A stretch of DNA of 63,405 nucleotides, filler included, from Dugesia japonica (lineage: Eukaryota): assembly GCA_001938525.1 (NCBI GenBank). It is 6 parts of 6 records of this genome, joined end to end, with 100 filler letters (N's around TTAATTAATTAA, not from the genome) between each part and the next. Parts side by side here need not be neighbours in the genome. Positions count along the whole stretch, not along the records: positions 12,361 to 21,212 come from MQRL01637244.1; 5 more parts are not named here. One strand, 5' to 3'. Positions 545-47,849 of the stretch are shown here, one piece after another. The translations under genes were made by a program, and so were the position numbers. The notes under the pieces were generated by a model. The model made no database searches. It was not told the DNA's origin and saw only the letters and a program-made list of their open reading frames with translations. How positions within the stretch are numbered: the first letter of the stretch is position 1; each line of letters opens with the position of its first letter.

Positions 545-3146
545 TAAATCTTGGTTTATATAAGGAAATAAGTATTATATAATAATTTCAGCTAATATAA
601 AGTGATCAAATTCCATTTTAAAATGTAATCAATTCTTTTTCAAATGTAATTATTTTACTAAGCTTGTGTTGTAGTAGTAAAATCAACGATTTTCAAAATT
701 CGATTAACTACAGGCGTGTAAATGAAGAGGTTAAAGTTTATTTTAAAANTGTAAAAGATTTAGTAAAAAGATTATTTACAAATAAAGATTTTACTGAGGA
801 AAAAATGGTAGCAAAGATGCTAGCATACTGTTCAGATAACAAAAAAGTTGAAGAAGTGACTTTGCGGAAAGGACAGTATATAGAAGAAATTTAAGAAGCA
901 ATGACGTTAGTAGATCGAGTAGAGAAAAACCGAGATCAAGTTTATGCAATTACCTGTTACGCAAAAGTTACAAGTCAAAATTATGAGAAACCTGTAAATC
1001 ATACTGTGAATAAACATGTGGATCAAAGAAAGGAAAAAAATATCGAATGCTGATATGTCATAAGATCGGTAATACTAATGCAAATTGTCCGACCAAAAAA
1101 GTGATTGGACTCGTCATAAAACAGACATATAAGTCAAGATTTTCAAAATAAAAAACCAACAAAATGTTTTGGTTGAGAAAAGTTTGGCAATATTAAAAGG
1201 TTATGTCAATAAGTGAGGTGTAAACAATGTGGTAATGGTAGACATAGAGCAGAAGAGTGCTATACAAATTTGAAAATGAAAAGATCAAATGAGAAATTTA
1301 TGACTGTAGAAAGATTAAGAAACCGATACAATCGAGTACACGTGATTGAAAATGAGGATGCCAATACAAACTATGGATATGTGGAAGTATATGAAAGTGA
1401 TTCTGAAAGGCAGTACCCTTGACTCCATCAGTAAAGGAGTTGGTTGGAGCCTTCCATTGTTAAATGAAATGAGTAATTATCCTCAAAGGATCGAAAAGTC
1501 TGATGATAGCGGGGAAGTTACAGAAAAATTTTACAGGTTCCTAAAGAGGAAAAACATTCGTACCATAAATTGCAAGGCAGACCAAGTGTTACGGTATCAA
1601 TTCAAGGAAATAAAGATGAATGTCTATTAGGTATAGAGACTAGAATTAACGTTATGAGTTTGAGAAAATAATAGTACGCTGGACATTGTTGGGAAAGTTA
1701 GAATTGGAGTGATAATTGATGAAGTTTGCAAAGAGATTACTTTNTTAGTTGCTGAAAGAGTGACACCAGATCTGATAGGATGCTGATAATTTTGATAAAC
1801 CAACTTATGCAAAATGTCGATAGCAAAACGGATAAAAAAAGTCGAAATTAACATTTGCAATATTGAATCAAAATTTGGGAGACAAATTAAAAAGGGAGAA
1901 CGATTTACAAGAGCCTTAAATACTTTAAAGGTTAAAGACAATTAACGGTTATTAAAAGTAATTGGAAGTAAAGAAGATGCTTTTGTGGCAGATAAATTGT
2001 ATGTAGAACGCACTGATCGGACAAGTTACAAAATCATCACAAGTGATAAACTAATCAATGTAAAACCGTACAGGCAACCAATGAGTTTAGAATCTAAAAT
2101 TGAAGAAGCTATCTAAAACCTTCTCGAAAATAATATTATCCGGAAATGCAACATTGCGTGGAATACCCCACTGGTTTGTGTTTGATAAAAAGAATAGAAG
2201 GACATAAGAATATGTTTGGATTTCAGACAACGTTATGAGTTTTGATTAATCAACGTTATGGATTTCAGGCGATTGAATGNNNNNNNNNNNNNNNNNNNNN
2301 NNNNNNNNNNNNNNNNNNNNNNNNNNNNNNNNNNNNNNNNNNNNNNNNNNNNNNNNNNNNNNNNNNNNNNNNNNNNNNNNNNNNNNNNNNNNNNNNNNNN
2401 NNNNNNNNNNNNNNNNNNNNNNNNNNNNNNNNNNNNNNNNNNNNNNNNTGGCATCGCAGCGGCACCAAGGACATTTCAGGAGATGATGACCAAAGTGGTA
2501 GGCGGAATCAATGGAAGAATGGTTTATCTTGATGACATTCTGATATTTACGAACAATAAAGATCAACACTATGAAGTCATTGAAAAAGTATTGACGGAAA
2601 TAATGAAGGCTGGTCTAAGAATTGATCTGGAAAAGTTTCAGTTTTTTCAATTCGAAATCAAATTTCTTGGGCACATAATTACTAGAAACGGTGTCAGAAC
2701 TGATCCGTCTAAAATACAAGCAATAGGAATATTTGGCAAAACTAACTGTGTGAAGAAGTTATTAAGTTTCTTAGGAATATGTAATTATTACAGAAAGTTT
2801 ATAGAAAACTACGCAAGGAAATCAAGGATCTTAGAACAGTTGTGTAGCAGACCAAGCAACAAGAAAGAAGAAAAACAAGGAGGTATGTGGTACAAGGAGA
2901 AATTGGACAGCGATTGAAAAGAAATGTGGAAAACTTAGAAGTTACCTAAAAAGGGGGATATAAGGAAATAATTATTATATAATAGTTTTAGCCAATAGAA
3001 AGTGATCAAATTTCATTTTAAAATGTAATCAGTTCCATTTCAATTATAATTATCTTACTAAGCTTGTGTTGTAGTAGTGAAATAAATGTCTAAAAATATT
3101 AATTGTGATTTGCAAAATGAATTAACAATTGAAGATTTACTTAACA
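545..3146 (+). mobile_element. Internally deleted Ty3/Gypsy LTR retrotransposon (partial 5' LTR, gag, protease remnant, RT, PPT, 3' LTR; no RNase H or integrase)
   Basis: Zinc knuckle CKQCGNGRHRAEEC (1213-1260); RT motifs FGIAAAPRTFQ, VYLDDILIF, FLGHII, FLGICNYYRKFI (2449-2830). Purine tract ~2860-2885 is followed by TGT. Direct repeat between 560-683 and 2958-3083. Confidence 0.93.
2886..3146 (+). repeat. 3' LTR (~261 bp, TG...CA) of the Gypsy element
   Basis: Starts TGTGG right after the polypurine tract and ends TTAACA. Homologous to 560-683 and to the LTRs at ~42767-42960 and ~61246-61430 (minus strand). Confidence 0.85.
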
Positions 3147-8667: not shown

Positions 8668-8762
8668 TTAACAAGCCACTTTTTTCATTCTAACTTGACA
8701 ATTGCTGCTTGTATCAACAGATGATAAAGGATTAGAAGTAATATGAGAATCTTGAAAAATCA

Positions 8763-8793
<31 letters not shown>

Positions 8794-9671
8794 TGATTGC
8801 ATAGGATGGATATTTAGAGGCTGTACTTTAGTTGCTGGTGGCAAGTGATAAATTGGACTGGATGGACGAATAGCAAAATCATACGGTAAATTATTAAAAG
8901 CCTTATTTAATGATTGACTTGGTTGATTTCGACTATCTTCTGCATCTAAATTCCGGTTATATTCGCCAATTGATGCTACCGGATACGTAATTGGCGAAGA
9001 CCCATTTGATGAATCATCAATTTTGGATTTAGGAGTACAGGGAAAACAACTTTTTATGTTCATTTTTATGATTTCCTGAGCTTCATTACAAATACTTGTC
9101 TAAAGGTTTAGTATATTATTAAAATATTATTGTTTCTATTTACTTTTTTAATTCTTGCTTTTTGCCATGCTTTATAAAATAATTCAAAAACCGCCACAAG
9201 TAAACCGATAGCTATTCCACAAAATAACATAACAAAGACTCCTCCAACTTCTTTTATTCCAAGTGAGCTTGTTGAAGCAGATTTCTCTGGTGGGTCGCAT
9301 GGTTTCGTGATATTATATTGACGCCAAAAATACCGACGCAGTTTTTCAATTTCTTGAGACTTTTGTAGTTTAAGAATAGATTCGGAAATAGCATCACGAT
9401 AACGAGAACCTTCAAAAAATGTATATCATAAATTATTTAAAAATTAACCTTCCGGTAAGCCAATTCCATATCCTTTAGAATCTAATAAACCACCAATTCG
9501 CATTAAATCACAATCCCTTTGTGTATAATATTCATTCGTCGTAGATTCCAAAATAAATGCATAATCTGAATTTTTAACTCGTTCAATTCCTTCTTTATTA
9601 CCTTTCACATAGACCGAAGGATTTCTATTCATGTATTTATACATGTTTTTATATGTAGCAAGCTCAGATTT
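8668..9671 (-). CDS. Ionotropic glutamate receptor (kainate/AMPA-type), last three exons: 9671-9449, 9409-9144, 9099-8668
   Basis: S2 domain [49 protein letters not shown]|[15 protein letters not shown] and M4 helix [35 protein letters not shown] introns 9410-9448 and 9100-9143 keep the frame to the stop at 8668 (C-terminus MKKVAC). Confidence 0.95.
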
Positions 9672-12360: not shown

Positions 12361-14240
12361 ATATGGTTTTTATAGGGTGATTATAGGCTTATTATAGCAT
12401 TTATAAGGTAATTATAGAGTTATTATATGGTTTTATAAGGTAAATATATGGTTATTATAAAGTTTTATATGATCTTATAGTGTTTTTTACCGGGTTCTTA
12501 TTAAAATTATAAGGTTTCATATGTCATTGTTGTGTTTTATTGGATTTAATATGATCTTATTGGTTATAATTTTGGAAATTGCATAAATATCTATGTAATC
12601 CTTTGAAAAATTGCATGTAAGTCTATGTTGTATTTTCAAACATAACATAACATATGGCGCTAAATGTTCACAAAATTAAATGTAAAACATAGGAAAAATA
12701 ACACAAATATTGCATAGAAGACAATAAAAGTTTACATAAATTGCTAATACGTATATTTTATATTTTCAAACCCAACATAGATGCATGGAACGTTTTAAAA
12801 AGATAACACAGATGCCATTAGAGTCTAATACAATAAATTCATACCCAGTTAGCTAATTGAGTCTTATACATAGAAAATCAATGAATATTATAAATACAAT
12901 TAACATCATAGAGTTATATAATACACACAATACATCTAATATGCCAATATAATACATACAATAAATCCAATAGTATGTTATAATACACACATTACACTCT
13001 AAAAAGTCATATAATACACGTAATTTACACAATATAGTGATATAATAAAAGCATAATATACTATTTATTTATTTAATACAACAAATATACCATATAATAC
13101 ACATAATACACAAATTAATGTCATAAATTACACACAATATACTATATAATACACACAAAATACAAAATAAAGTCACTTAAATACACAGAATAAACCTAAA
13201 GAATATAAATAAAAACATACAATACACACAATACAGTTAATAAATGCCTAAAATAAGCATAATAAAGACATAAAATACATATTATAAAACCAACAGAGCC
13301 AATAATAATAAATCCGATAAGACATACAATAAAATTATTTAACTAAAAGAGTCATTGAATGCACATAAATAACTCAATTGAACTAGTTCAATTCACATCA
13401 TTAACTCCATACTTACATTTAAATGCGTATAATAAACCAAATATATTCATAAACATACAATAAACTCAATATAGTTGTATAATATACATACCAATACCCC
13501 GATAAAGTCACTTAAATACACACACAAATAACCTAGTATAGTCTTATACGCATGAAACCAACGTGTCTTATAGATAATAAACTAATGAGTCTTATACATT
13601 AAATCCTATAGATTTATATAATACACATATTATACACAATATAGCTGTATAATACATTTAATAAATCATAAAAAGTCAATAAATACACACAATTAAACCA
13701 ATAGGGTTACCAAATACATACATACAATAAGCCATATAATACACAGACAAATTATTTAATGCACACAATACACTCAATATGGTCACAAAATACAAACAAT
13801 AAACCAAAACACATATAATACACACTATAAACCTAATAGTGTTTTATGATACACACTCTAAACCCATTAAGTCATACAATACATATAGTAAACCATATTG
13901 TCACTAAATACACACATGCAATGAAACCAATAAAAGTATATACATAGTAAACTCAATCGAGTTTCTTAATTACATACAATAACTCCTATAGAGTAATAAC
14001 TACATAACACACTCAATATAGACATAAAATGCATACAATAAACCGAATAATTTCATATAATACACTCGCAATGAACCTAATATTAACAATAAATACACAC
14101 TTCAATTGGACTAGTTAAAAGATACAATAAACGTCATAAATACAGTTAAATTCATACAATAGACCTACGTTATACTATTAAATACCCTAAATAAAGTCAA
14201 TAGAGCTATTTATTACACATAATACATAAAAAATACTCAT
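12361..14240. repeat. Degenerate satellite-like tract (TTATAGGG-like units, then ~30-35-bp AATACACATAATAAACC-like units)
   Basis: Dozens of aatacaca / taatacac / taaacc motifs; related reverse-complement array at 37860-38210. Confidence 0.75.
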
Positions 14241-14659
14241 CAATGTAAAATAATATTAAAGTCGACCGGGGGAATATTAAAATTTAATACATATTAATAA
14301 ATCATAAATACATGTCAGGCGATGAAAATGTAAAATTAACAAAGGACTTAACATCTGATTAGTAATGGATTTGTATAATATTATAGACAATATGTTTGAA
14401 CATATAACTCCATCGGTTCAAGATAATAATAGTTAATATTAATCTAATAACTATTTAATAGTATTTGATGTTCAAGAAAATGATGTAAAAATAGTTGAAA
14501 TAGATGCATTGACAGAGGAAGAGATGAGCGATACTCAATCTGATCCAATTACTTACATTCCGAATAGGTTAAATATAACTCTAAGTAATATGCCCATTGA
14601 TGTAATTCTTTGTGATAGGTTATCTCGAATTTTAGAGAATTTAATAATTTTTAATGATG

Positions 14660-14935
14660 TAGCTAATGAAAAGAATCAACAAATACAAATATACATTTTA
14701 CAAACAAACTTTGAGTTAAATAGAAATTCAATAATTAATAATAGCAACTGCGTTATCTCTTTCAAATTAGGTAAGCGAGACAATCCACAAGGATAGTTTT
14801 TACCATGATGTATTGAGTAACATTTTTACCAAAAAACTTGAATATGTTTACGATGTAGAAGTTGATTGGAAAACAAAATATAATTACTTTTATCTAGACT
14901 ATGAAAATACAACATTAATGACAAGTTTATTTGGG
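14660..14935 (+). pseudogene. C-terminal remnant of a Polinton packaging ATPase
   Basis: YILQTNFELNRNSIINNSNCVISFKLGKRD and WKTKYNYFYLD match HISQTYFHLDKKSIRNNFICFKFFKLNKTD and WKTKYNYYYLD of the ATPase at 32822-33622. Confidence 0.75.
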
Positions 14936-16224
14936 TGAGTTACATAAATTAATAAAATTAATATATCAATCAAAGAAAGTTTTGGCAATTTGAGTAATTT
15001 GAAAATACATTTTCTTTTCCAAATTAAAAAAATAGAAGATTTTATTCTTTGTCTTTTTGATTGGTGGAGCTCCAAATAACCTCAAGATTATTGTATAATC
15101 ACTTTAATCCTGAAACCTATATATTATTACTAATTCATGTGGATTGTATGGGACACCACAAGGATTGTAAACTGATTTTAAATTACTATTTTTGGGCTAG
15201 AACACCAAAAATTTGTCGAAATAATAAAGGAGTAAAGAATAGGGAAAATGTGTAAAATGAGGACGAGTAGACACCAAATTGATGAACTGGACCAAAAAAT
15301 ATTATCTTGAAAATCATTATTATTATAATTATGGGTATTNNNNNNNNNNNNNNNNNNNNNNNNNNNNNNNNNNNNNNNNNNNNNNNNNNATTATTATGTA
15401 ATTATTATTATTATAATTATTATGGCGAATTTTGGAAAATACCGAAAAATTAAAATCAAGCGTAGAGGACCCAAATCTAATGACACGAAAGTAAAAATAT
15501 ATGTAAAGAAAAGTAATGATAAATTGAATAATAAAAATAATATAAAATAATAATATAATAATTTATTAAAGGGGTCTCTTCGACCCTATTTCATTATTAT
15601 AATAACGCTGTATCGAGTTTAATATTAATTATTATATTTTAATTAACCTGGTCCAGTCACGATTATCTGGTTTTTCCCTGCGATGATTCAGACGAAACAC
15701 CAGACAGTGAAACAAGGACATTCTCCTGATGACACGAATTTGGTTTTTCCAAATTCGATGTCAATCATCGTCCGGATAGAGAAATCCAGAAATTCAGTTA
15801 GAGACAAGAAGCCATAGCCAATGGGAGGAGGCTATTTTAAAATGGAGAACGACGATTGGTCGAGCAATAAGGGCTCGTCAATCTAAAAATGATAAAACCG
15901 AATAGCCAGAAAGAAAACACAGCACTTTGTTTATACTGATTTTAAAAAATTTACTAAAAAAATCTTTAAATCAGGAAAACCTCCATTTAAAGTTGAATAA
16001 AATTACTAGAGAAACCTTTGAAAGAGAGAAAACCTTCATTTACGATTGGATAACAGGACAATTTCATTGAACCAGAGGCGAAAATAGAGATTAAATAAAA
16101 AGTAAACTTTAATTTGTATATTGTGCATTTAACCATCATCTTACCTATATGTATCTGAGTGCCTTACCCTGAATCTGGAGATCGTGCCCTCGAAAATATA
16201 TAATGTATATGGATGGCCTTACTT

Positions 16225-16595
16225 AAATAAGATGACGAAGAAAATCAGCATATTTATCCAACAAGTAAATAGGAGATGATGAATGAAAATCAGGACGTTC
16301 ATTATGTAAATTCGCACGAGATGATGAAAATGAAGATTCAGCACGTTTATTAAGTAAATTTTATATGTGATGAGGAAGAGAAATCAGCACATTTACCAAG
16401 CCAATTTACATGAGATGATGAAGAACAATCAGCATGGTTATTAAGCAAGGTCTTACGAGATGATGTAGAGGAAAAGGCAGCACTTAATAAGCACACTTAT
16501 TAAGCAAATTGTATGAGAGAATGACGAAAAGTCAGCAGATTTATTAAACCACTTTCCATGAGATAATAGAGAAAATTTTGGCACGTTTATTGAGC
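16225..16595 (+). repeat. ~42-43-bp tandem repeat inside the LTR (about 8-9 degenerate copies of GAGATGATGAAGAAAATCAGCACGTTTATTAAGCAAATTTTACAT)
   Basis: Periodic gatgatgaag...tcagca...ttattaag units. Confidence 0.85.
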
Positions 16596-16597
16596 TA

Positions 16598-16933
16598 TTG
16601 AACGAAAAACTGGGAAACTACGAGAAGAAGAAGACGGAGATGCTTCGCAAAGGTGGCCAGTTGGTGTCCAAATTCAGAATAGTCAAACAGCAGCTGATCG
16701 ACACCCAAAGTTCGTTTCAACGATGTCAGCAGGAGAACAAACAGCTTCGCAAGGAAATGCAGTTGATCCAGGAAGGAGTAGTAAAATTGATTCAGGGTCA
16801 CACAGAGAGTGGTGCACTGCTGGGTCAATTCGAAGATCGGCTCCTGTTGAAGACACCCGAAGGTATTGCAGAGAATACCAGCTCCCCGAGTCCTATCATT
16901 GTAAAGGTGAAGTCATTAGCAACGGCTAAATAA
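16598..16933 (+). CDS. LTR-encoded coiled-coil ORF A (start uncertain)
   Basis: 111-codon open frame, GC-rich relative to its flanks and rich in Q/E/K/L heptads; AATAAA overlaps the stop. Confidence 0.55.
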   Translation: MNEKLGNYEKKKTEMLRKGGQLVSKFRIVKQQLIDTQSSFQRCQQENKQLRKEMQLIQEGVVKLIQGHTESGALLGQFEDRLLLKTPEGIAENTSSPSPIIVKVKSLATAK

Positions 16934-17254
16934 TAAACGTTTACGAGCGATCGAATTCTGTTTTATTTGTTTTATTTAAAAAGATTAAATTCCAGTGATA
17001 TGTACGTCACTTTGTTAGTAAATATTTTGAGTCTACCGAGGTAATAGTGAGTCGTATGAACATTATTTATCCACCAGTTATCATTTTTGAATAAGAATTT
17101 AATTACTGAGAGAAATTTAATGATTCGGGTAGTTCAGCGAAATAAATTATTTTTCTTTATAAATTATGATAATTTAAATTGAATCTGCTACATCTCATAT
17201 TGTTCGTATAATTAATAAAAACGAATGCCAATTGAATAATGTCTCACATTTCAG

Positions 17255-17613
17255 TGAACAAATCAAACGACACAAAAGGATTGCGAGTGGATGGAAGTGA
17301 TTTGCAGCACCGATGGAAAGAAGAACGGAGAGAATTGAAAAATGAAATTCTGCGACTGAAAGGACAAGTGCAGAAGTCGGCAGCCTAATACAACCCGATC
17401 AAAGAGAAGGAATTGTCCTTCCAGCTTGCAAACCGATTGATGGCCGACATTATCAAGATGTACGCAGATCGAGAAAGCTCCATGTTCGTATCTCTACGCA
17501 CGTTATGGCTCAATTATCGATCCACAGAAGAGACAAGCACAATAACGGAATCAACAATCGATAAAGGAAATATACTTGTAACAATAAATGTTAATGGGTG
17601 TAGTTTGGAGTGA
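17255..17613 (+). pseudogene. LTR-encoded coiled-coil ORF B (W-x51-RE family), one premature stop, preceded by a tttcag acceptor
   Basis: LQHRWKEERRELKNEILRLKGQ...KEKELSFQLANRLMADIIKMYADRESSMFVSLRTL aligns without gaps to 40706-41016 and 46690-46986. Confidence 0.7.
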
Positions 17614-17888
17614 TTATTGTGCTTGTATTAATTATTGAGTTGAAAGTACTAGATTTATTTTTACTGAGCATGTAAGATCATTGCTGTCTGGGTTCACAGA
17701 TTTAATAAGTAAGACGTGATACCGCAAAGTCGCGCTGAACCCGTGGAAAGAAAGGGGTGACATAAATACCTGTGGTTTTTGCATATGCCCCTAGACATGT
17801 AAATGAATTACTAATTATTAGAAGCGAGATTGATGAGTTCAAAGATAGGATTTTAAGATACCAAATTCTAAAAACCCAACAAGTATTT

Positions 17889-17907
17889 TGGGTGCTCAGC
17901 CGGGATT
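17889..17907 (+). promoter_or_regulatory. Primer-binding site, tRNA-Pro-like
   Basis: TGGGTGCTCAGCCGGGATT versus TGGGGGCTCGTCCGGGATT (complement of the metazoan tRNA-Pro 3' end): 16/19 match, 7 nt after the LTR end. Confidence 0.7.
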
Positions 17908-20900
17908 CTTGGTTTTCTTTTCAAAATAATATCTGTTTTAACTGAATAAAGTGAATAGAAATGATCAAATGAAATTTTGATTAATCAATGCAACCGAATT
18001 TGAATGAAAAATTTGTTGGAGACTAATCGAATGTTAATAAAATTGGTGGATTAAATGAACAATATTTTGGTAGAAACCATGATGATTATGATGACAAGAA
18101 ACTAAAACATGAAGAAGAACAGTAAAATATTGAGATACATTTCATTGAATTGAGAAAAGAATTGATGCATATCAATTATTTAAGAATTGATAAAATTATA
18201 ACAGAATTTGATAAATAATGAAAATTTCAAGTGATAAATTCTGATTTAAATTGTTTTCAAGAGCACGATCATCCGTTTGGCTTAATGAGAAAATTTAATT
18301 TTCCAAATATTTATGAATTTCTTAAATTTTATGCGGGCACTCAGATCATGTAAGATTTAATTTTGTGCATTATTTAATAATGTTCTTAACTTTGCGCATT
18401 TATATTTTATGAATGTACTTTTTTAACATGCGCAGTGTAATTTATAATTTATTTTATTATTATTATTATTTGGTCAGCAAATTCTCATAATAAATTGCAG
18501 TAAATGATTTTAGTAAACGGCTTTAATAAATACATTTTAGTAAAATTTGAATAAAATTTGAATCAATAACTTGATTAGAACCAAATTGTGGGTAATTATT
18601 TTAGTAATACTCTTATTAATAGTGAAATAATGATTTTAATGCCGAAAATACTCTGATATTTTATATTTTTATTTATGTATAGTATTTATATTATATAAAA
18701 AATTTAAATTCGATCTATTTACCTAATTAAAACAAAGTGAAAGTTTAGAAATTTAGATATTTTAATTTTATTTTTATGTAATTTAAATAGATAATTTAAA
18801 ATCCACTCATAAATAATAATTATTAAAGTAAAATAGAAGTTCAATAGAAGTATTGAGTTAGTTTAATATGTAATATTAGTTGGTACAGACAGGCAGAGAA
18901 TTAGGAACATAGCATGCATTCAAATCAATATTGACATAAGACAATTGAAATGCACACAGAGCATAGGAACATAATACGATACATGCAAAGCATAGTAGAG
19001 ATTTTGTGCAATGAGTGGCGATAGGTTTGAGTAATTAGAGGTGCAGCAAGTGAATGAGAGTTGAATTTATGCGAGTATAGGGACTGATTAAAAGAGTTAC
19101 GTCAGTATTGCTGTATTGCGATTTGGCATAGGCATCGAGTTATTGTGTGTGTCATTTGGCGATGCTGCAAAGATGATGATGAGCGTCAACAAATAAAGTA
19201 AGATGTACAAGCTGCTAAATGACAGAGAGTCAGAAGACCTGGACTATCTATCATGCGACAGTGGGATTATTTTACATTATACGTCTATTGATTTAAATTG
19301 AAAAGAGATAGTGGATGCTATGAAAGAGTGGTTCAAATGTCTGGTAGGTGCAAGTGGGCTGGAGGACTTGCACACATCGGGCATTGGGATCAACATAGAT
19401 TCATCATCAATAATCGACAAATAACAATGATTAAATCTCTAGCCAAGTGATTTGGAAGTGAAATGTGTGTGAGATAGAAATCAGGACTTATACGCACTGC
19501 ATCTCCGAATTAAGGGTTATGAGACATCAAATGTGTATGCAAATATTAAATTAAATAAATTATAATAAATAAATGAATGACGATAAAATGATAATGGAGT
19601 GGTTTTGAATGAGCATGGTGGTGAAATTAGAAGATGGATCTCGCAACTCTTCTCATTCAGAGTGCCTCAATTCAAGCATCACCTATTGAATGAATCGACA
19701 GATAAACAATGATCAGGGCGAGTAGTTTAAGTAAAACATCAAATTCAATTTGCTGCAGATGTTCATGGAATATCTGTTGAGTAAATGGCATGCATTGTAG
19801 ATAAAAGCGGGGGAAATTAGATTGACTCACAGGTCAGTTGTCTACGAAGATAATAGTAGTAGAAAATGGACGTGAGTCAATAGAAATTTGACGTTCGTGC
19901 ATCTAAAAGAGCAGCATTAAAAGTGTAGTAATGGTGAGGCAAGTATTAAATAAATTTTAACATGCATTTAGCAGCAGAAAATCGTAACGAGAAGCGAGTT
20001 TTTGGAGTGGGTAAATCAATGACCAGTAATAATATAGTAACAGAAGCGTAAATGAAATTGATATGCAGGAATAAATGAGTAAATAAAAAGCAACGAGGCG
20101 AGTTAAAATTCTAAATGAGCTGAGATATGACTAAATGTAAATGAAGCAGATCAGAATAAAGTAGAAGCGATAACGACTATAAATCAAAGGATAATAAAGT
20201 AGAGTGAGAATTATTGAGATTAAAACCTCCATTGAGAAGGTAAAACAATGAATAAGGGGATTAAATTAATGGATTGAGACGTATCCTGTTGTGATGTGAT
20301 AACAAATCAGAATGAATAATAATATTAAAGAAACGAGATAAGGTGACGATATGCAAAATGTTATTGATGAATAATGAATAAATGGTACCGACAATGGAGT
20401 AATAGTAACTGAAAGTAATGAACGGAGATGGGGACGAGGTGTGCAAGTGGAGTTCTGTGGTTACGGAGTCATATGAAACAATAAACGAATAGTTGAATAA
20501 TGGTAGAATTAAAGTTGGGAGAGGTAATTGATATTAGTTGTGATTTAATTGATGGTTTCATATGAGATAATTATTTGGAATTTAGATTTAAATGTTGTTG
20601 GAGAATTTTATTGTAGTGATTTGGTGAGGTATAATTTCGAGCGTAACCACAGATATGTGAAAGCACCCGAGGAAAAGATTTCATAATGGTGGATGTCATT
20701 TTGGCAAATAGGGCCCGCGATTAGTAAGCTGGAACTTTAAGCTTGATCAACTTTGAAGTGACAGCCGCAATGATCGTTTAATGACTGAAATGATTGAAAG
20801 TGTTATTGACTGTGGGACAGGAATCTTCAAAGTAGTTATTGGAGTGGAAGATCTTCCTTGGATATGCTGGGACGGACTTCGAGCTTCGACGCTTCGGATA

Positions 20901-22099
20901 AGGAGTACCGATCTCGGAAGTCGGATACTTTGTCTGACTTCCACGCTGGGAGAATGGAGTTTAGTCCAGGCGAGATTAACTCAGGAATTCCAGGGGAATA
21001 AACAAAGGAGCTGGCAACGAGCATCGCGTCTATTAAGCTGACCACTTATGGCGTTCGGTTGGTGAGAGTGCGCCTTGACACTAACTACCTACAGCTAACT
21101 ACCATAGCTCTACAAAGTTTTAGATTTGATGGTGAAAAATCCCGGTAGGACAAGGCCACAAATTGTCCGTGGTATCTTGCGATCAGAGGACTCAGTGTTG
21201 ACGAGATGGTACNNNNNNNNNNNNNNNNNNNNNNNNNNNNNNNNNNNNNNNNNNNNTTAATTAATTAANNNNNNNNNNNNNNNNNNNNNNNNNNNNNNNN
21301 NNNNNNNNNNNNAAAATTTTGACCTTTGGAGGAGGGCTGATACAGGGCTCCAGTGTCTACTTACTATAATTGTATTGAATATTTCCTTTGACATTGTTAT
21401 AATCAATTGATTAATCAAACTAATAGGTAGTATTATAATTCTGAAATAAATAATTTTAATAACCATTAAATAATAATAAATTTACTTTAATTAAATTCTT
21501 TCTCTTGATGCCCTTAGATCGTCAATTTGAATTACCGTAATTCTAAAATTAAAATCATAATTATTAAATAATAGCAATAACTTTACATTCTACATCAATA
21601 CACTTGCGAAATTCATATTTTCATTATTATTAATATTGTTCACATCCTAAAAGTATTAGGTTGGTAAGAAAATAATTGCGGTTTTATATAATATTACTTT
21701 AAAACTAATTATTTAAAAAAACCATTTGTTTTAATATATAATATTAATAATATTAATCTATATGTCATTTTGAAGCGAATATTTAATTCTACATTATAAA
21801 AGTAATATTTTATTTTTATTACTATTTTATTGTGAAATATTATTTTTGGAAGACATGTTAAATAAATATCAAATACGACCAATATTCTTATATGAATTTA
21901 AACTGGGATCTTAAGCAGCAAAGACGACTAGGAAAATCAACAACACATTCGGCAATGAAACTGCAAAAGAAAGAACGGTCCAATTTTGATTTTAAAAATT
22001 CAGGAGTGAAGATATAAGAGAAAATGCAAAAAATAAAATAAAAAGTCTTTATTCAATGACTAACTTATTTCAGATTTTTCTGAAATTTTAAGGTACATT

Positions 22100-28596: not shown

Positions 28597-28980
28597 TTAA
28601 CATTTTTTATACTGGCTTTTAAGCCATTCAATACAATATTGTCCACATAGAAATGTCAATGGATTCTGATACATGATTTGATTGTAATCGACACGTTGTT
28701 GCATACTCTCTAATTTTGTTATCACCAATGGTGGATAAAACATACCCATCGGATCAAATACACGACTAATATTTGGATTGACATAAATAGCAATACAATG
28801 CTCACCATTCAAATTCGAGGTATGTGTATTGATTACAAAGCATCCGTTTTGTAAAAAGTTCGGTAATCGTTCCAGAGGATACACTCCTTTGAATAGTCTG
28901 CTTCCAAAATCACGTTTCAATATTATTTCAATCTGAAAAGTACTATCAATCAATAAATTCTCTTTATAAAAGCCATTCAT
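28597..28980 (-). CDS. Polinton adenovirus-type cysteine protease (adenain)
   Basis: FKGVYPLERLP...VINT...GEHCIAIY...FDPMG...YQ...CGQYC with the H/D/Q/C catalytic residues; frame intact. Confidence 0.9.
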   Translation of the reverse strand: MNGFYKENLLIDSTFQIEIILKRDFGSRLFKGVYPLERLPNFLQNGCFVINTHTSNLNGEHCIAIYVNPNISRVFDPMGMFYPPLVITKLESMQQRVDYNQIMYQNPLTFLCGQYCIEWLKSQYKKC

Positions 28981-30270
28981 ACTTCATGCTATGCCATACA
29001 CACATACATGAATATATTGTTTATACAATCATTACTCCATTTTTAGTGATTTGAATTTCAGAATCAAATACTCCATATGAATACATTGTCACTGACTCCG
29101 TCAAGGCCTTATGAAATCGTACATCCAACTTGAGATTTCCGGTTTTCTTCAATTGCGGTTGATCAACAGCAAAGTTCGGTGCCAATACAAAGGTAAAAAC
29201 TTATACGAATCGTTAAATTCCTTCATTGTAATACCATTGTTNCGATCTACATTTAACAGACCCATGTTACGAATAATCGATTGCACATATGCCTCAGTAT
29301 AGTCAGTATCAAAGTCAGTAGTATATATTTCTCGATAATCAACGTTTCTTATGAAGCCAAAATTTGAGAATGTCGAGCAAAATGAGCCGTAATCACCACT
29401 TGCTTGTTTCAATGATCCAAAAGCAATCAAAACAAATTTCGGTAATCGTTCATCGAAAAAAAGACTATCTTTATATCCCCTATGTGAATTTTTTGGAATC
29501 GTAAAATGCACGATGTTTGTTTTCTGGAAAGAATAGATTGCACTTTGATGTTTCAATCCTTGACGATATCTAATCATAACTGATCGATAAACACAAACAC
29601 GTTGCACTACTAATTTTGCTTCTATAATGTACGGTTGGAGATTCATCTCAACTGTTTCAGTACCCTTGGTATATTTATAAATTACCGAACCCATATTTCT
29701 CGTCAATTTGATTGTCACACTGACTTCCGGCAACAAATACTTTGGTTGATCAAAGAAATTCAAATTAAGTGCACTACAGAGCGTTAGCTTTGCAGACGCT
29801 TTAATCCAACCTTTTCTCTTGTCATCTTCTTTATGATAACCAATAGCTTCAAGAAAAGGGTTTTTTGTATCCGATACAAAATTCAATGCGGCTTCAATTA
29901 CCNCCTTTTGCATATACGTATCATTTGTATCTTCAACCTTTACATTATTTAGTGTTAATGATGCTTCTTTGAATAGAGTATGAAGCAAATAATTGGAAGG
30001 AATCATGTTGGTAGTATCAGTTTATGTAGAATCCGTTTCATAATGTTTCACAGTCTTCATTTTAACAATGAGCAATGTATGATTCAAATCCAAGTAATCA
30101 TTATTTGAACCAATAAAATTGAATTAAATTTGTTGTCCAGCATACACAGTTATAGAATGTTTTAGGTAGATTTCTTCAAATTTTGAGCTTTCAACAACAA
30201 CCTGTGATATTTTGTGGTGAAAAAGCGATATTTCAGTTTTTCAGGCATACATGGTTATTTTGCTAAGATG
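28977..30270 (-). pseudogene. Polinton major capsid protein (PY/hexon-like)
   Basis: NYLLHTLFKEASLTLNN, NFFDQPKYLLPEVSVTIKLTRN, LPKFVLIAFG and upstream DYLDLNHTLL; frameshifted at both ends. Confidence 0.88.
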
Positions 30271-32821: not shown

Positions 32822-33622
32822 TCACCCTTGAAATCGCTCTTCTTCTAACAAATCTTCTATTAAAACTTCAGCTACTCTATCTAAATAATAATAATTATAC
32901 TTTGTTTTCCAATGTAAATTTACATTATAATGATATTCCATTTTACTTAAAAATATCTTATAAAATAAATCATAATAAACATTATCTTTATCAGTTTTAT
33001 TTAATTTGAAAAATTTAAAACAAATAAAATTATTTCTAATAGATTTTTTATCTAAATGAAAATAAGTTTGTGAAATATGATTTACATTACAATTTACATA
33101 TCTTCTTCTGGTAAAATAACTTTTCTGGATTTCTTGATCTTTTACATCATCAAAAATTATTAAATTCTTTTTCAGTTTAGATAATTTATCACAGGGAATA
33201 ATTTCCTTTGATTTACTACTTAGAACTACGTTTATCCCAGAAGAGTCAATAAATCTTTGTTTATTTTTTAAATATTTGTTTTCTATAAACCATTGAATAA
33301 CTTGCAAAGGAGTAATTAAAGAATCAGGAACTATGTTTTGATGTTTAAAATTAAAATGATATCTTGTTTACTTAATCCATTTTCAAAACCTTGATAAATA
33401 ATTGTAATTCGAATTGATTTATAGTTGTGGAATAAATTATAAAAGAGTCATAATCTAAAAACTCTGGAGTTAATAACATTTTCATTAACAAAACATTTTT
33501 ACCTGATCCTGATGAACCAATTATTAATAATCTAAAATTAGATGGAAAGATTTTATTACTAAATATTTTTTATTTTTATTTCAGAACAACGCAGCCGGAA
33601 TTTTAAAGATCAGTCAGGACAT
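32822..33622 (-). pseudogene. Polinton A32/FtsK-like packaging ATPase
   Basis: FRLLIIGSSGSGK (Walker A, ~33500), LIIFDD (Walker B), YFTRRR..NCN...ISQTYF and SIRNN. Confidence 0.9.
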
Positions 33623-34354: not shown

Positions 34355-35792
34355 ATTTACCATCTAACAAATGACCAACAATTAACAACAATAAAGATAA
34401 ATAAGTATATTAGTGAAATCTTAATAATATCTATTACTGCAAATTGATAATTTTGAGACGATTTCTTCGACCTGAGGCCTATCACCTTTTTCCGTTTTAT
34501 AACACGAACCAGGGAAGATACCCACTGGAAACAGTTATCTTTCCTCGTTCCTGTTATTGGCAAATAGTACCATTATATCAATACAATCCTCCAACAACAA
34601 CTTATTTTAAATAAGACGAAACATGTAATAATTAATAATCACTGAGCCAATAGTAAAACTAGGTGGATAGTTTATTCATAATAACCAAATTATAAATTGA
34701 ACAAATATTTTATTAATAAAAATCACTTCAGGAAAAATATTTTAATAATAAAAAGCATTTCAGGACAAATATGTCCATGAATCATGAACAATTCAATGAA
34801 TCTCCACTAATGATGACATAGCTAACACAAATCAAACAACAGACAAAAATTTAATTTGAGGCATAATAAGTCTGATCTAAACTACTACTCGGTGAAATTT
34901 GATAAGGGCTCAACTTTCTTCTCAACTCACAGTCGCTATCTCACAACTCTTTTCTTAATTTTCGGAATTCAATTCCCCTCAAACTATACTCGTAGAACAT
35001 TCTCCTTATGATCTCTATCAGTCTCGTACTGATCTCAAATCTCTTTTCATATAGTTGATCAATNNNNNNNNNNNNNNNNNNNCCCTTAGTCTCACGAATT
35101 ATTATTTCAACAAATTTGGTGAGAAAAATTATCGCTCACTCCCTAGCATACCACGATCATCTCTAAAACCTGTCAACACCAAAACAAAAATGACACTTGG
35201 GTAAATAGTTATATTTTAAGGAATGTTAATAATAAAATTTATGATAAAAATAAAACATTAAAAAATAAAAACAAATAAAAATTACTCTGTTATTGTCGAT
35301 AAGTTGCGTTTTCAACAGGAATAAATCATAACTTGCCACAATTATTCGTATATAAAAATCTTTTTTAAAAATGGAAATGAATAACTTGAATGTTTCTCCG
35401 TGTAGCGGTATTTTATTCCTTCTCGGATTTGAAGATTGAGGAGCTCTCATTTCTCACCCAATCGTTGGTCCTTATTCCACAATCTTGGCATCCTATTGGT
35501 TCCTGGGGTCAGATTTTCTCAAATCTCGGAAATGATCGCACCACAACTTTGCTTGCCTACATGCACGATTGATTGACAACGAATTTGGAAAAACCAAATT
35601 CATGTCGTCAGGCAAATGCACCAGTTTATACTGTCTGGTTTTCCAACTTATTCATCGTTTGGAAAAACCAGACTTAAAGGTGAATGGACCAGATTAAATG
35701 AATTTTTTTAATAATATTAAACGCTAATTAGCGTTTTTTATAATAACGATAATGGGCCGTAGAGGAGTAAAATTATGTGTTCTGGCCCAACT
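34355..35792 (-). mobile_element. ~1.4-kb LTR-like insertion (TGTTGGG family) splitting the Polinton integrase
   Basis: Begins (A)GTTGGGCCAGAACAC on the minus strand; 35560-35765 is homologous to 15570-15775. The integrase frame stops on one side and resumes on the other. Confidence 0.7.
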
Positions 35793-36050
35793 TTACTTTT
35801 AAATATTTGTTTGGTTTTCTATAATCTTTATGTAATTCATTTGCTAATATTTCTTTATTTTCTTTATTAATAAAATTATTATCAATAGAGCCGTCGCCTA
35901 AAATAAGTTTACCTTTTAATGCTAATTTTACTAAAGCTCTTTGTATTTTTTCAGAAGTAGTTGGATTTGGAATATTATTTAAATCATGAACTAAATTTCC
36001 ACATTATTAAAATTAATGTTTCCACATCTAAAGATCCTAAAATTAATCTC
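35793..36050 (-). pseudogene. PLA2-like C-terminal segment fused to the Polinton integrase N-terminus
   Basis: DLNNIPNPTTSEKIQRALVKLALKGKLILGDG continues in frame into EILANELHKDYRKPNKYLKVK, the integrase N-terminal LAxELHK motif. Confidence 0.65.
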
Positions 36051-36339
36051 ATGGATTTACATAAACTTGGAAAGGAATTATTTCTAAAGTTATTTTATCT
36101 CCCTCTTTAAAATCAATCTCTTTTTTATAATATAACATTGAATTACAAATATCTCATGAATTTGATGATTGTAAAGATTGAAAACCTTTATCTCCTGAAG
36201 ACATTAAATTTTTAATTGAACCAGATGATGGTGAAATTCATACCGCGTAATATGAAGTCATCATGCAAAATGGATGCTCGCATCATGCACAATGCATGTT
36301 TCCGTCATGGATGAATATGAAAATATATGTTTTATTATA

Positions 36340-36860: not shown

Positions 36861-37439
36861 AAAAAGAATATATATTTAAAAATTCATAAAAACATGGAAC
36901 GTTTCTTTAATAAATTATAAAAGTGTGAAACCTGTTTTGTTAACAAGTTAATTTTAAGTAATTCTAACTAATGTTTATAAAAACCTAAAAGTAAATATTT
37001 TTTATCAATTAAATTTTAAGTATTTTCTTATTAAAACGTAACAAGTTTCATTAATAAAAAGCGACGACTATCATTTCAATTTATTAAATTTCTATAAGCA
37101 TATGAATAATAAAATATAATATATTTAATTACTCGAACATTAAATATCTAAATATTGAGGCAAATTGATATTATCTATACTTCAGATGTACTTGTATTGC
37201 ATCTGTGTTGCAAATTTTCAAACAAATTGAATAAATCTGAAGTAATGTCATCCATATATCCTGGAAATTTAAAATTTATTTAAGTACAAGTATTACTAAT
37301 TTCCCTGTTGAGAATACAATTATGTATCCTTTTCTTTTAAAAAGTTCATAGCTTCTTTTAAACCATCAAAATAAATTAATTTACGATGAAGATCTTTAAA
37401 TATAGGTAATTTAGAAGGAGGAAAACAGGGAGAGTTTTA

Positions 37440-40353: not shown

Positions 40354-41276
40354 ATTATTCAGAAGGCACGTGATATACAGCTGGAAATGGAAGAGCATAT
40401 GAAGATGTCGACTAGATTGTCGGGGAAGATCGANNNNNNNNNNNNNNNNNNNNNNNNNNNNNNNNNNNNNNNNNNNNNNNNNNNNNNNNNNNNNNNNNNN
40501 NNNNNNNNNNNNNNNNNNNNNNNNNNNNNNNNNNNNNNNNNNNNNNNNNNNNNNNNNNTGATGCAACAGTAATGAAATAAGTAAACACGTCACTTTTAAA
40601 ATGAATTTTAATTTTTGAGTATCTGGGCTAATTACAATAAGTTACAATTGATATAATAATTTTTTAATTATGATAAAAGTTAAAAAATATGCTGTTATTT
40701 TCCAGTGGCCGCAGTGAAAAAGATAACGGATTCATCGACAACAGCGATTCAAGCCAAGTAGTGTGCAATGCAGCAGAAATATAAGTCCGAAATTGTAGAG
40801 CTACAACATAAGAACACCCAACTCAGAAGTAAGGTGAGTCGATTACAGGAAAAAGATCTGGCACTATCCCAGACGTGCCGAGCAATGGCGGAGATAATCA
40901 AAACATATGCCGATCGCGAAGGAGTATTAATCGCCACGGTCCGCACTCTTACTCAAGTGTCAACATCCTCCAAGAAGGCGAATACAGAAGCAGAGATTAT
41001 TAGCATTGACGAATAAATCATTGTGTGTATATAATATATCTTCGTTGAAATTATTAACTTTGGAAAGTGTGAATATTTAAGAGCCGAAACAAACAGAAAT
41101 TAAAACGCACAAGACGGGATACAGCATAGTTCCGCTGAATCTGGGAAAAGGGGGATCGTGTTACGAGAGAGAGTAACACAAATTTCTGTGGTTGCTAGGT
41201 ATCATCCCCCAGACAAAAAGACATATTCAGAAATAACGAGAGATTAAAACAAGATCAAAAGCCTAGCAACCCAACA
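40354..41276 (+). mobile_element. 3' portion of a large TGTTGGG-family LTR
   Basis: Ends AACCCAACA and has the same layout as 16750-17881, including the acgtcactt...tttgagt motif and ORF B. Confidence 0.7.
40706..41016 (+). pseudogene. LTR-encoded coiled-coil ORF B homologue (conserved W codon is now TAG), after a ttccag acceptor
   Basis: IQAK*CAMQQKYKSEIVELQHK...QEKDLALSQTCRAMAEIIKTYADREGVLIATVRTL. Confidence 0.7.
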
Positions 41277-42960: not shown

Positions 42961-45900
42961 ATGATTTCATATATATCTGTAGGCAACTTTTTAATCATTT
43001 TTTCTTTCGTTTTTTGACATTTACATCTTTATACAGTTTTATATTTTATATCAGTTTTATTTTCCATATCAAATTTTCTCGAAATATATCCGTGAACCTT
43101 TTACAATCAGAATGACATAATAATTGATGTTACTCTGATTAAAAAAAATGCTGAAGTAATAATTTTTAAACTTAAAAAATGTATTTTTTTATAGGTATAA
43201 AATATGTACATACATATATGCTCGTACATGTGTGTATTATGATTATAATATAAAGTTTTTATTAATAATGAAACCAATTAAATCAAATTGAAAACAATTG
43301 AAATAATATTCTTGGCAACTGGCAACTAAATTAAAATTTGGATTTAAAAAGAAATCATTTTAAAAGAAGAAATAAAAGAAAACAGAATTTAAAGAATAAT
43401 AGAAAGGGAAAATAACTTTATCAAGGAATAGAAGTTATTCCTTTGAAAAATTTGATATTTTGAAAACGCAAAAATTGCCTAATTGATTTGACTACCACCG
43501 ATAATTGGAGTATTCCGAAAATATGAAATTCTACAAATCGAAATATATATATCCAATCTAAACAATAACTAAAATATTAAATCATTTTAAATATCCCATA
43601 ACGGCGACAGTAAATTTTATTCAGTGTTTCTTCGAATTTTACATAATTAATAAACATTATTGTAACAATAATCTATCTGTTTTTGTTTATGACTGTTGTA
43701 AAAATTTTGTATAGTTTAATCCAGGTACCCGTTACTGTAATCTTCAATTAACAACTATAATAACCCAACTCAGTCATTTGTTTTACGTCTGCTCAGGTTT
43801 ATAAAAGCATCTGCACAATATTCACCCCGGTTGTCCCAATATTGAGGCAAGAGACTCTGTCGGGCCCAATATAACTCTCTGATAATATCTAAATTAAATC
43901 AATACAAAATCTACCTATAAAGTAGCATTATAAATAATATTAGATATTGATATACATGTTGGGGTGAAACACATGATTAAAAGAAAATGCATAATCAAGG
44001 GGGTCCAAGCTTCAACTAATTAAGAAGAAATAAAATGCAGAGAAACTAATTAATAATAATTCTCATTTCGATAATAAATCGTAAATAAATAATCAAAAGA
44101 AAATCAGAAGAATATAGAAGCAATAAAAATAATAAAAGATAATAATAATAAACAACCACAATTATGAAAATTAAATGTTATAATAAATAATAAGCGGAAT
44201 ATGATCAAAAATATTGTTGTGGAATAGATAAATAAAAACTTTAAAAAAATAAATTAAGTAATATTGTAAATAAGCTAGAATAAATATATGAAATAAAAAC
44301 TGGGAATTTGTGCAAAATAATAACTGAATTCGTAAATTCAAATTTAAAGTTAAAAAATGACAAATGAGTAAATTACAACGTTTGTAAAGAGTACTGGAAT
44401 TACGTAATTAATAGAATAATAAATGAGAAATGATATTTTAAAAAAGGAAGGAATGTATTAACGGTGAAATTGTAAAGATGTATATAAGCTAATGATTATT
44501 AAAGTATAAATTAGGAAACATTGAGGTAGAATTTTAAGAAAAATATTTATAATATTAATTAAAATAAATTAACAATTATAATAAAAAGATCGAGAATAAA
44601 ATCAAAATAATACCTAAAAATTCGACGAAGGGAAAAATGAAAATTTACAGTTATTTATACCCTTTTAAAATCAATTGATCATTAATCAGGTTAACATGAG
44701 TAAACTCAAGGGTCGGCTCATTATCAACGTCCAACAAGGGACATGAAGGAAATTCGAACAATTAATTAATCTCCATTTGACATGATAAACAAGAAAATCT
44801 CTTTTTAGCTTACATGGAGTAAATATTAAGAAATCATTGAAAAATAAAATTAAATATTTTATATTATAACAAAGAGTTAATTAAGTAAAAATATTAATTA
44901 TATATATAAAATATCATGTAATATAAATAACTATGAACATAAAGATGTTTATAGATCAATTAAAGAGGTATAATATCAGATTGTAGTATTAATAAGGGTT
45001 AAGTAATAAAAATGTAAATAAAATGATAACTTTCTAAATGACATAAAAATTAAGAATAATAGTTAATTATGCTCAAAATGATTATTAAACATATCATATT
45101 ATATTTTAATATTATTATGATGTACATAATAGTGTAAATAGCCATATTAATACAAATCCAATTTTTCTAAAAAATATTAAATATAAATGGAATTGGTATC
45201 ATGACAATGCTGCAAATAAACACAAAAAATGGTCAAAGTAAAACAAAGATGTCGAAATTTTAAAGAAACTTAAATCGGATTAATTATAACAGAACCACAA
45301 ATTTTTCTAAAATGATGAGAATTCATTCTTATGGATGACTTTGTGGCTATGCATAAAAACTGAATTGGAGCGACCAAACTTTAAAGAAATAATAAAATAA
45401 TTTATCTCGTTAGCTTAGTGAAGGTTATAGACAAATGTTATTAACAATTTAAGTTATTATAAAATTTGAGGCGTTCAAACCCGTACCTGACAGTAGGATG
45501 GAAAATTAATATACAGCCAATGAGAGATCAGTGTGACAGGCTTATTCCTATTGGATCTTTAAATTTGTAATTTTTATTCTTGATGACATTTTATTTGATA
45601 CACATTTTTATTTGTTATTATGTGAAAAGTAGATTGTGCATGTGTGTGTAATACTATTTAAACAATTGTAAATAATCCATAAAATTCGGTTAAAAGTGCT
45701 ATAACACGATTAACACTGTGTTGAGAAATAAATTTATTATTGAGTTAATAAATTTTGTTTGAATTGAATTATAATTCACGAGATTTTAGAACCCTTAGAT
45801 GGACTTTTACTTGAGCAAGGAGCAGATTTAATATAATATAATTTTAATATAATTTAATATAATTTTATAATTTAGCAAGCTTAAGTGTTGGAAACCCAAA

Positions 45901-46689
45901 CAATATTATAAGAAAATAAAATAGAAAATTAATTAAATTTTTATGAAAAAGAAATTCAATGTAATCAAAAATCAGTAAAAGAGGGATATGTTCTCTCTGG
46001 AAAGCCAAAAAAGAACGGAAAAAGAAAATCTACAAAAATAATGACATGGGTAATTGAGTTTCATAACAGAAAAACACTAACATTATCAAAAGAGTCAGAA
46101 AAAAGGGTTAAAAATCGGGTAAATGAAGGGCCATAGAATAATCAGAAGACAAAATCAGCAGGTTCTCTAAAAATAGGCATCAATAGAACGGCTAAAAATC
46201 ATGGAAAATCCTAGAATTTTGGAGTTGGTGCCAATTAGAAGACGGATAGCTGAAAACAAAGATAGCACCCATTACAATGAAAATTGGGTTGTATGAAAAA
46301 TTATATAAAACCCCCCATAACTTATACATTGTTACCCTAAAAACGTTTGAATTAAATTAGTCTCTATAATTTTATATTGCAAGGAAATAACAACCGTCTC
46401 ATTCGTTAAAGAAAAGCTGATTTGGGAAAATTACGAGTTATTATAAACGAAACGCTAAGTGCACAATAATCAATTAACAGTTCATGAGAATTTGAATTTA
46501 TCGTTTAATCATCAACCGTAGCGGAATTATATTATTTTCGAAGTATGTTTTGGTTGTTTTATTATTATGTTCATGTAATAAATTTTATTAAAAACAAACG
46601 AATCGTTTAATTACTATTTATTTCACTTAATATATGGTCATTTTACCGCCCCTATTAAACAAATACGCGAAGACAGCGAGGACATCAAA

Positions 46690-46986
46690 ATGTCCTGGGA
46701 CTTGAACCGCTTAGCAAAAAGAAAGTGGGAGGTTAACAACGCCACTGCTAATGGTAAGGTGAAACAGTATAAATCTAAATGTCAAGATTACCGGCTTGAA
46801 GCCGAAACCTCTCATTCGCAAGAGAGTATGTGGAAAAGGCAACTGGAAAGCCTAGTCGAGAAGATAACCGCACTTCATGCAAGAGAAAATAAACTGGTAG
46901 CAGATATTTTAACTGTTCGTAAGAAAATGCCCTTAGAGCCTTTACTTATTGATAAATCAACACAAACCGCCCAGAATCTAAATTGA
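46690..46986 (+). CDS. LTR-encoded coiled-coil protein, W-x51-RE family, intact 98 aa
   Basis: ATG in AAAATG context, open frame and downstream AATAAA; W1, E33, I47, R53, E54 and T63 are colinear with the other two copies. Confidence 0.7.
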   Translation: MSWDLNRLAKRKWEVNNATANGKVKQYKSKCQDYRLEAETSHSQESMWKRQLESLVEKITALHARENKLVADILTVRKKMPLEPLLIDKSTQTAQNLN

Positions 46987-47126
46987 CATTGTAAATGTTG
47001 TGTGGAAAATAAATATATGAATGAAGTATTGTCCTTTTCACGAACTTTGATATCGGTTTTAAACTTTGCTTAATTATAAAAACATCGGTATCTGTTGATT
47101 GTAATAGTTTTTTCTTTACTTTTAAG

Positions 47127-47488
47127 TGCCTAGAATACGACTCTCAAACAGACTCCTTCGATGCCACAAAATAATCCAGAAATTACTAGTAGAGCGACAC
47201 TTTACTAAACGATGCAAATGATACTTACTGAAACACATTACCCAGCGCAACCAATTAATAAAGAAGTTAAAAATTGTGAATAAAAAGAAGGACGAGCTAG
47301 CCAAACAAGTCAAGCAGATTCTCACCAATAAAATCGAATTCTTAAAAAGGTACATCGCTGACCTGTCTACTCATTTAGAACTAGAAACGTGGACAAGATG
47401 GAACAGCAATGACAATGAGGCAGTATTTGATTTTTCAAATGACGAGCCAGCCCAGTGGCTAGACCCTGAGGTGCTGAATTATATGTAA
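47127..47488 (+). pseudogene. Second LTR-encoded basic coiled-coil ORF (one stop) after a tttaag acceptor
   Basis: VPRIRLSNRLLRCHKIIQKLL...RNQLIKKLKIVNKKKDELAKQVKQIL...; AATAAA downstream. Confidence 0.5.
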
Positions 47489-47849
47489 TGTGTGTACAAA
47501 ATAAACTTTTCATATTTAATCTATTTACTAATATTTTTGATCAGTTTGTTTAAATGGGGAAGTCTTGAACCCGAAACAAAGGTGTACAAGTGTGGACTCC
47601 AAGTAAGCAATGGGAGTCAACCACTTTACACTGAAAACCTAAATAAGTACTTTAAGTAAATTCTTCGAGGGGTCCCCTTAGGTCTGGTTTTTACCCCCTG
47701 CCGAATTTTACCATTTGCGACTCAGCTGGAACCCCAACATATATAATATAAACTTCCTAATAATGAATATAATCAATCAATTTGACTCTTATTTTTTTGG
47801 ATCAAAATTTTATTTTGAATTGTTTAAAACAATATTTTCGATCAGTATT

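Follow-up and report, generated by a model that had tools for sequence, protein, structure and literature searches.

The window analysed here, a stretch of 63,405 nt, is animal genome DNA. It is gapped and repeat-rich, has a GC content of 27%, and contains exons of a kainate-type glutamate receptor as well as relics of gypsy gag, protease and RT. Elements A and B within it each carry a copy of a short coiled-coil gene, ORF2, and both copies are broken, with one in-frame stop codon apiece. These features are collected in Table 1, together with a third element, C, and a minus-strand fragment, D.

Table 1. Positions of elements A to D and their parts along the window.
Feature	Position	Strand	Remarks
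Element A, probable 5′ LTR, ~2.7 kb	15145..17881	+	50-N gap at 15340-15389; 5′ boundary tentative
CCAAT + ATTGG pair	15818..15859	+	likely internal promoter
Donor-like site	16102..16108	+	sole GT(A/G)A between promoter and ORF1; preceded by A
ORF1 of A	16159..16933	+	AG|TG head; stops and frame changes; AATAAA at stop
ORF2 of A	17254..17613	+	AG|TG head; stop 17386-17388; AATAAA at 17583
Non-coding 3′ end of LTR A	17614..17881	+	most repeated block
PBS-like site	17889..17906	+	7 nt past terminal CA of A
Decayed, repeated start of A internal region	17907..18350	+	~450 bp
Fragment D	35380..35764	-	homologous to 5′ and promoter part of LTR A
ORF2 of B	40705..41016	+	AG|TG head; stop 40759-40761; tail IISIDE; AATAAA over stop
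3′ end of LTR B	41017..41276	+	common with A; 5′ part lost in assembly gaps
Element C, probable solo LTR from a different family, 3.8 kb	43957..47739	+	TGTTGGGG...CCCCAACA
ORF1 of C (third copy of the preliminary description)	46690..46986	+	98 aa; intact; own ATG
ORF2 of C	47126..47488	+	120 codons; one stop (47219-47221); AG|TG head

The ORF2 copies of A and B are true homologues beyond doubt. Their Smith-Waterman score of 112 was reached by none of 5000 plain shuffles and by none of 5000 heptad-preserving shuffles, and the similarity thus survives a shuffled coiled-coil control. Both match the profile of a coiled-coil family, here called YADRE, significantly: against 17 outside proteins A scores 79.7 bits and B 65.1 bits, where the best shuffle reaches 15-18. 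A preliminary description of this DNA had joined the two with ORF1 of element C in a single family conserved without gaps, counted from a conserved W. The residues it listed do occur in its ungapped register (33 E/D/E, 45 D/E/E, 47 I, 53-54 RE, 63 T). Read as conservation, these three-way identities are at chance level, with C agreeing at 4 of the 20 columns in which A equals B, a count that 4857 of 5000 shuffles equal or exceed. The family stands for A and B, by shuffles and by the outside profile, but not for C, which fails pairwise, profile and column-match tests alike. The A-C score was equalled by 641 of 5000 plain shuffles and the B-C score by 1266 of 5000. C reaches 6.7 bits on the outside profile and does not match the family significantly, since 44 of 3000 plain shuffles score as high, as do 133 of 3000 that preserve the heptads. 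On the core matrix it ranks twelfth among segments of the window, level with unrelated frames, and its DNA has no significant likeness to A or B. Neither the absence of gaps nor the W held up. The best local A-B alignment contains a 7-residue gap, 7-residue indels occur among YADRE family members, and the N-terminal coils of A and B score 35 when shifted and 17 when not; 15 outside proteins have a residue in the W column, and in just two of them is it W.

Element C has perfect 8-bp inverted termini, and its flanks, TACA and TATA, are equal in three of four letters. A search for homologues of its ORF1 at 53-172 aa found none, and the Atlas gave weak unnamed neighbours only. Its ORF2 is built like that of A and B, with an acidic aromatic tail and an AATAAA 14 nt past the start of the stop codon; the homology is non-significant, and Pfam assigned the part at 47222-47485 to no family. 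ORF1 of A showed no significant homology to the ORF2 family, ORF1 of C, the frames of fragment D or a B fragment at 40354, and a marginal one to ORF2 of C (53 of 3000 shuffles as high). Downstream of the fragment D promoter, at 34850-35061 on the minus strand, lies a coiled-coil-like frame whose similarity to ORF1 of A is non-significant (216 of 3000 shuffles as high). Downstream of element C, 48400-49490 holds a decayed gag-like frame with two zinc-knuckle-like motifs, recognised by eye, and a protease-like frame.

Relatives of ORF2 exist outside the window. A HMMER search over 1.84 billion proteins, with no length filter, returned 5 proteins of 83-112 aa in its first round and 17 in its second; look-ups of 15 of these 17 added two cluster members, giving 19 relatives without internal stops. 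Seventeen of the 19 are 89-115 aa long and the other two 83 and 63 aa. None has a name, and their sources are short contigs of ENA, JGI or Logan. The 17 outside proteins share 23-85% mutual identity, and ORF2 of A is 66% identical to one of them, P0003, over 105 aa. Scans of viral, metagenome and prokaryote contigs for the DNA context of the relatives were empty, and the protein-library matches included no named host homologue. The earlier statement that the protein belongs to no assignable family was borne out, with no significant match in Pfam, PHROGs, PDB sequences or PDB folds. Pfam gave scattered generic coiled-coil matches in at most 3 of the 17 outside proteins, PHROGs matched 0 of 17, the best PDB sequence had a non-significant E of 0.027, and a Foldseek check against the PDB gave no match.

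The 35-codon core of A and B has a pS of 0.89 and a pN of 0.32, with identities of 0.57, 0.80 and 0.26 at the three codon positions. Synonymous sites are saturated, and dN/dS was left uncorrected because pS exceeds 0.75. Together with the relatives, these values support the long-term purifying selection on an element-encoded coiled-coil protein that had been proposed, for A and B though not for a family of three. That ORF2 encodes an element-borne protein under selection is, in our judgement, very likely.

Element A begins TGTATGGG at 15145, a tentative and imperfect LTR terminus, and terminates CCCAACA at 17875-17881, as does B; the ends fit the pattern TGTTRNR...YNYAACA given in the accessible part of PMC3601003. 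Its non-coding 3′ end aligns with that of B up to the terminal ACCCAACA, and its promoter region aligns to fragment D, each with a score reached by 0 of 500 shuffles. The 3′ block likely contains R and U5. In the PBS-like site of A, the first nine letters match a PBS-Pro 9-mer at eight of nine (PMC10602909, in part). No such site follows the end of LTR B, which 24 nt separate from a gypsy gag-protease relic on the minus strand. A six-frame Pfam scan of 17890-21210 gave no match, and no second LTR copy, gag or pol for A was found within the window.

Depth was summed over the contigs of two runs aligned at 80% likeness, and the sums, which are not copy numbers, are read only as many related copies whose coding parts are better kept than their flanks. 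Depth is 2.5 and 17 in the bin 14968-15101, and 168 and 323 in the following bin; since this rise falls in the bin with TGTATGGG at 15145, the LTR would be about 2.7 kb long. Depth reaches 69,000-87,000 in 17648-17781 and 39,000-56,000 inside the PBS-like site, and is about 90-1250 across 17916-18317; the longest exact-match contigs have a depth of 3-5. On both coiled-coil frames it is 750-2960, against 440-690 in the spacer between them and 2-14 over most of the preceding stretch; over 16576-16843 it is 750-2700, against 2-14 over 15906-16575. Near the 5′ part of LTR A, 15504-15637 has a very high depth of 35,000-68,000, partly beside AAT repeats. The assignment of A as an LTR is strong but incomplete, and we think it likely that the ORF2 gene lies inside an LTR. 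The setting once claimed for three copies is well supported for A, supported in B by the 3′ end common with A, and plausible for C.

The layout of the gene is unusual. ORF2 of A and B has no ATG at its head, and opens at a pyrimidine-rich, splice-acceptor-like AG|TG situated 69 (A) and 67 (B) residues ahead of YADRE. Fifteen of the 19 relatives start 63-68 residues ahead of YADRE, and P0003 and P0012, which are called longer, carry V at 69 and 67 before it. The first M of the relatives may be a true ATG, contrary to a split start. ORF1 of A and ORF2 of C also open at AG|TG. By tests of AGTG and AATAAA that were defined after data inspection, as was that of the tail motif described below, a frame of 95 codons interrupted by no more than one stop follows 9 of 269 AGTG sites, the heads of ORF2 in A, B and C included; six of the nine are on the plus strand, and the four of these six that have an upstream stop within 12 codons are ORF2 of A, ORF2 of B (two sites) and ORF2 of C; AATAAA occurs within -30 to +25 of 5/5 stops, versus 0.224 for background stops. 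ORF1 of A has a coiled-coil-like frame open over 16562-16933 and a 45-bp tandem repeat, delimited at 16223-16448 or, more widely, at 16223-16590, whose translation is a decayed acidic/basic repeat of 15 residues and which is almost copy-specific by DNA depth. The donor-like site in the leader of A may serve as a splice donor. It is preceded by A, so that splicing to AG|TG would make an ATG.

RNA depth in one direction, from run X6, is 0.7-4.8 over 15772-16843 (4.8 in the bin 15772-15905, which covers the promoter region), 0-0.19 over 16844-17245 and 3-15.7 over 17246-17513. Coverage of ORF1 and ORF2 is mainly one-directional and that of the spacer very sparse, in small counts; under the commonest strand convention the X6 reads would be antisense. 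Since 363 of 388 X6 reads are less than 95% alike, they come mostly from relatives. Run X9 contributed 39 reads only, almost none over the ORFs, and the RNA alignments listed include no splice joint across either proposed intron. We infer that ORF2 is expressed and spliced, and a spliced last exon seems to us the more probable form of the gene, by a modest margin of belief.

The model of one relative, P0006 (pLDDT 88.6), is a single helix over residues 9-86 with a loose, low-confidence tail. Two chains are predicted to form a parallel, in-register coil, with a score of 0.59 against 0.00 for the best control, contacts that agree to at least 89% and pLDDT of at least 80. Microbial pairs reach the mark for a dimer in 21 of 30 cases and animal pairs in 7 of 16, as against 0 of 23 for single chains; coiled-coil dimers may pass this test through likeness to solved coils. 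A parallel coiled-coil dimer is accordingly a prediction, one that we hold to be probable. Conserved residues lie both on the predicted interface and on the outer face, where L53, Q57, R60, D64, K67, D71, A74 and T82 of P0006 are nearly invariant.

The helix core, not the tail, is the most conserved part. In 17 of the 19 relatives a variable linker leads to a short hydrophobic motif and then acidic residues at the end of the protein. The consensus for a SUMO-interacting motif (SIM) is a core of (V/I/L)(V/I/L)x(V/I/L) that lies between acidic flanks where the protein is unstructured (PMC3174244, in part). By this measure the tail is strict in 8 of 19 relatives (VVDL) and in B (IISI), relaxed in 17 of 19 and absent in A; 9 of the 17 tail motifs begin with T and so depart from the strict consensus. 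In piRNA silencing, SetDB1/Wde is recruited through contacts between SUMO and SIMs (bioRxiv 533091, in part), and avidity for SUMO chains increases with dimerisation (PMC3901395, in part). As the tail resembles the consensus, SIMs have this role in silencing and dimers gain avidity, we favour as a hypothesis a bivalent SUMO decoy or adaptor. Of the functions first suggested (silencing suppressor, Gag cofactor, restriction or immunity factor), the SIM-like tail would best suit a silencing suppressor. Binding of SUMO by the tail is possible at somewhat less than even confidence, and an anti-silencing role is rather unlikely.

We propose that the gene of which A and B hold broken copies is a conserved one, of 90-100 residues, in the probable LTR (likely the U3) of an LTR retrotransposon that is abundant and of animal origin. 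Splicing would join a short leader with a terminal A to AG|TG and so form the start codon. ORF1 and ORF2 would be alternative last exons, each with its own poly(A) site; use of an acceptor would activate the poly(A) site close to it, which would leave full-length RNA free to read through. The two acidic tails of the dimer would then bind SUMO, and this binding would likely weaken SUMO-dependent silencing of the element. As a whole, this account, from a spliced LTR-borne gene through a dimer to a SUMO-binding anti-silencing factor, is tentative. We speculate further that the LTR is a self-contained gene cassette, and that thousands of LTRs, solo LTRs included, use a start made by splicing to express a dimeric SUMO decoy that blunts piRNA/SUMO-guided heterochromatin silencing in trans, although this fullest version is improbable as stated.

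The same gene in the same setting could instead act on the particle of the element: it would pair with Gag or with an Env-like coil as a coiled-coil partner, or inhibit either as a dominant negative, and in this way control assembly or copy number. A long amphipathic helix with a predicted dimer would suit such a partner, and Burro polyproteins carry Smc-like coils and Env-like parts (PMC6431247, in part). Pfam, PDB sequences and PDB folds reveal no Gag or Env homology, however, and the separate conserved acidic tail is left unexplained, so we rate this reading as unlikely. Equally unlikely is a host-facing adaptor that uses its conserved outer helix face to bind some host protein, though not SUMO. 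The eight nearly invariant residues outside the predicted interface speak for it, and its tail would be another short motif, such as a clathrin-box-like one; yet the clathrin box is leucine-led, and the V/T first position and acidic flanks of the tail fit a SIM better.

Two further readings are less probable again. The first is a bZIP-like zipper that, in the manner of HBZ of HTLV, would partner host transcription factors at the LTR promoter. It has in its favour the parallel coil with a core Asn, a sub-threshold bZIP_2 match of B (E 0.071) and weak Atlas neighbours with HALZ in 11% and bZIP_2 in 15% of members; it has against it that no basic region is conserved ahead of the coil and that the Pfam matches of the 17 outside proteins include no bZIP family. 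A captured host exon, a dispersed host gene family or a non-LTR repeat (DNA transposon or Polinton cargo) would account for acceptor and poly(A) features typical of ordinary exons, for Polinton-like relics nearby and for the lack of a paired LTR or pol linked to A, but sits poorly with a PBS-like site of very high depth just after CCCAACA, non-coding 3′ ends common to A and B, terminal repeats of just 8 bp in C and the absence of a named host homologue among the protein matches.

Returning to an LTR-borne gene for a dimeric protein, a close parallel in mode is sag of MMTV (and in part nef of HIV), an accessory ORF within the U3 of an LTR that is expressed from spliced RNA or U3 promoters (PMC12789967, in part). 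Sag, a retroviral protein, is a superantigen of the type II membrane class, whereas the present protein is a predicted soluble coil that shares no sequence match with it, encoded by an exon without ATG in an LTR with two ORFs, each with its own acceptor-like site and AATAAA. In the MDG1 group (412, mdg1, Stalker), two small accessory ORFs are under purifying selection, and a short transcript stops at an early poly(A) site; sORF1, of ~110 aa, is nuclear (bioRxiv 2025.03.14.642691, in part). Like ORF2, it is small and under selection, and an early poly(A) site lies after it. The MDG1 ORFs differ in lying upstream of gag in unspliced RNA, with sORF1 a predicted helix-turn-helix and sORF2 a membrane protein, as described in the accessible part of that source; here the ORFs precede the PBS-like site, are likely spliced, and ORF2 forms one long predicted helix. 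We therefore do not place ORF2 with Sag, sORF1 or sORF2.

Composition and repeat content suggest a planarian host, though only as a conjecture; in a planarian, the element would most likely belong in a Burro context. Burro/GYPSM1 elements have long LTRs. They are giant gypsy-like elements of planarians, number in the thousands, and have accessory ORFs, domains related to ubiquitin and SUMO, and a polyprotein of Gag, MATH, BIR, BCL2, Env-like parts and Pol (PMC6431247, in part). The likeness, which is by description only, lies in high copy number, long LTRs, an AT-rich host and accessory ORFs; the difference is that the accessible text of PMC6431247 does not place the accessory ORFs within the LTR. 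At the level of the tail, ICP0 of HSV-1 turns a SIM against SUMO-dependent intrinsic defence, and Daxx has a SIM at its very C-terminus (PMC3174244, in part); here the SIM is predicted, and the protein has no RING or enzyme domain, so that only a decoy or adaptor is possible.

The YADRE family and its gene layout were not found described in the literature consulted, and go unmentioned in the accessible parts of PMC11410931, PMC8532177, PMC7264820, PMC3601003 and bioRxiv 2025.12.11.693146. Supplementary files, Repbase, Dfam or the original Burro paper may already annotate the ORF; ORF2 is probably an undescribed accessory gene in two LTR-like copies. Retrotransposon LTRs are normally masked as non-coding, and an LTR-borne protein family still conserved at identities as low as 23% would escape both transposable element and gene annotation. 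Solo LTRs could still express the ORF2 protein. Should the tail bind SUMO, this would be a rare silencing suppressor encoded by an animal transposon, small enough for direct test. Even if SUMO has no part in its function, the family is one of accessory proteins that has no name and whose genes are unusually laid out.

Other repeats and host sequences share the window. One gypsy family has left three relics, at 558-2917 (plus), 41300-42958 (minus) and 60798-61438, with gag and partly protease and RT. Rfam and tRNA scans gave no matches. Polinton-like relics occur at 14443-14900, 28597-30021, 32822-33367 and 35773-36003. By their motifs, these are capsid-, protease-, ATPase- and integrase-like; their sole Pfam support is a weak Peptidase_C5 match. 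The kainate-type glutamate receptor exons lie at 8668-9671 on the minus strand, and 56670-56915 is presumably a purine nucleoside phosphorylase-like host exon. Tandem arrays are present at 12850-14260, 36324-36880 and 37466-37705, with units of ~31, 53-62 and 32 bp.
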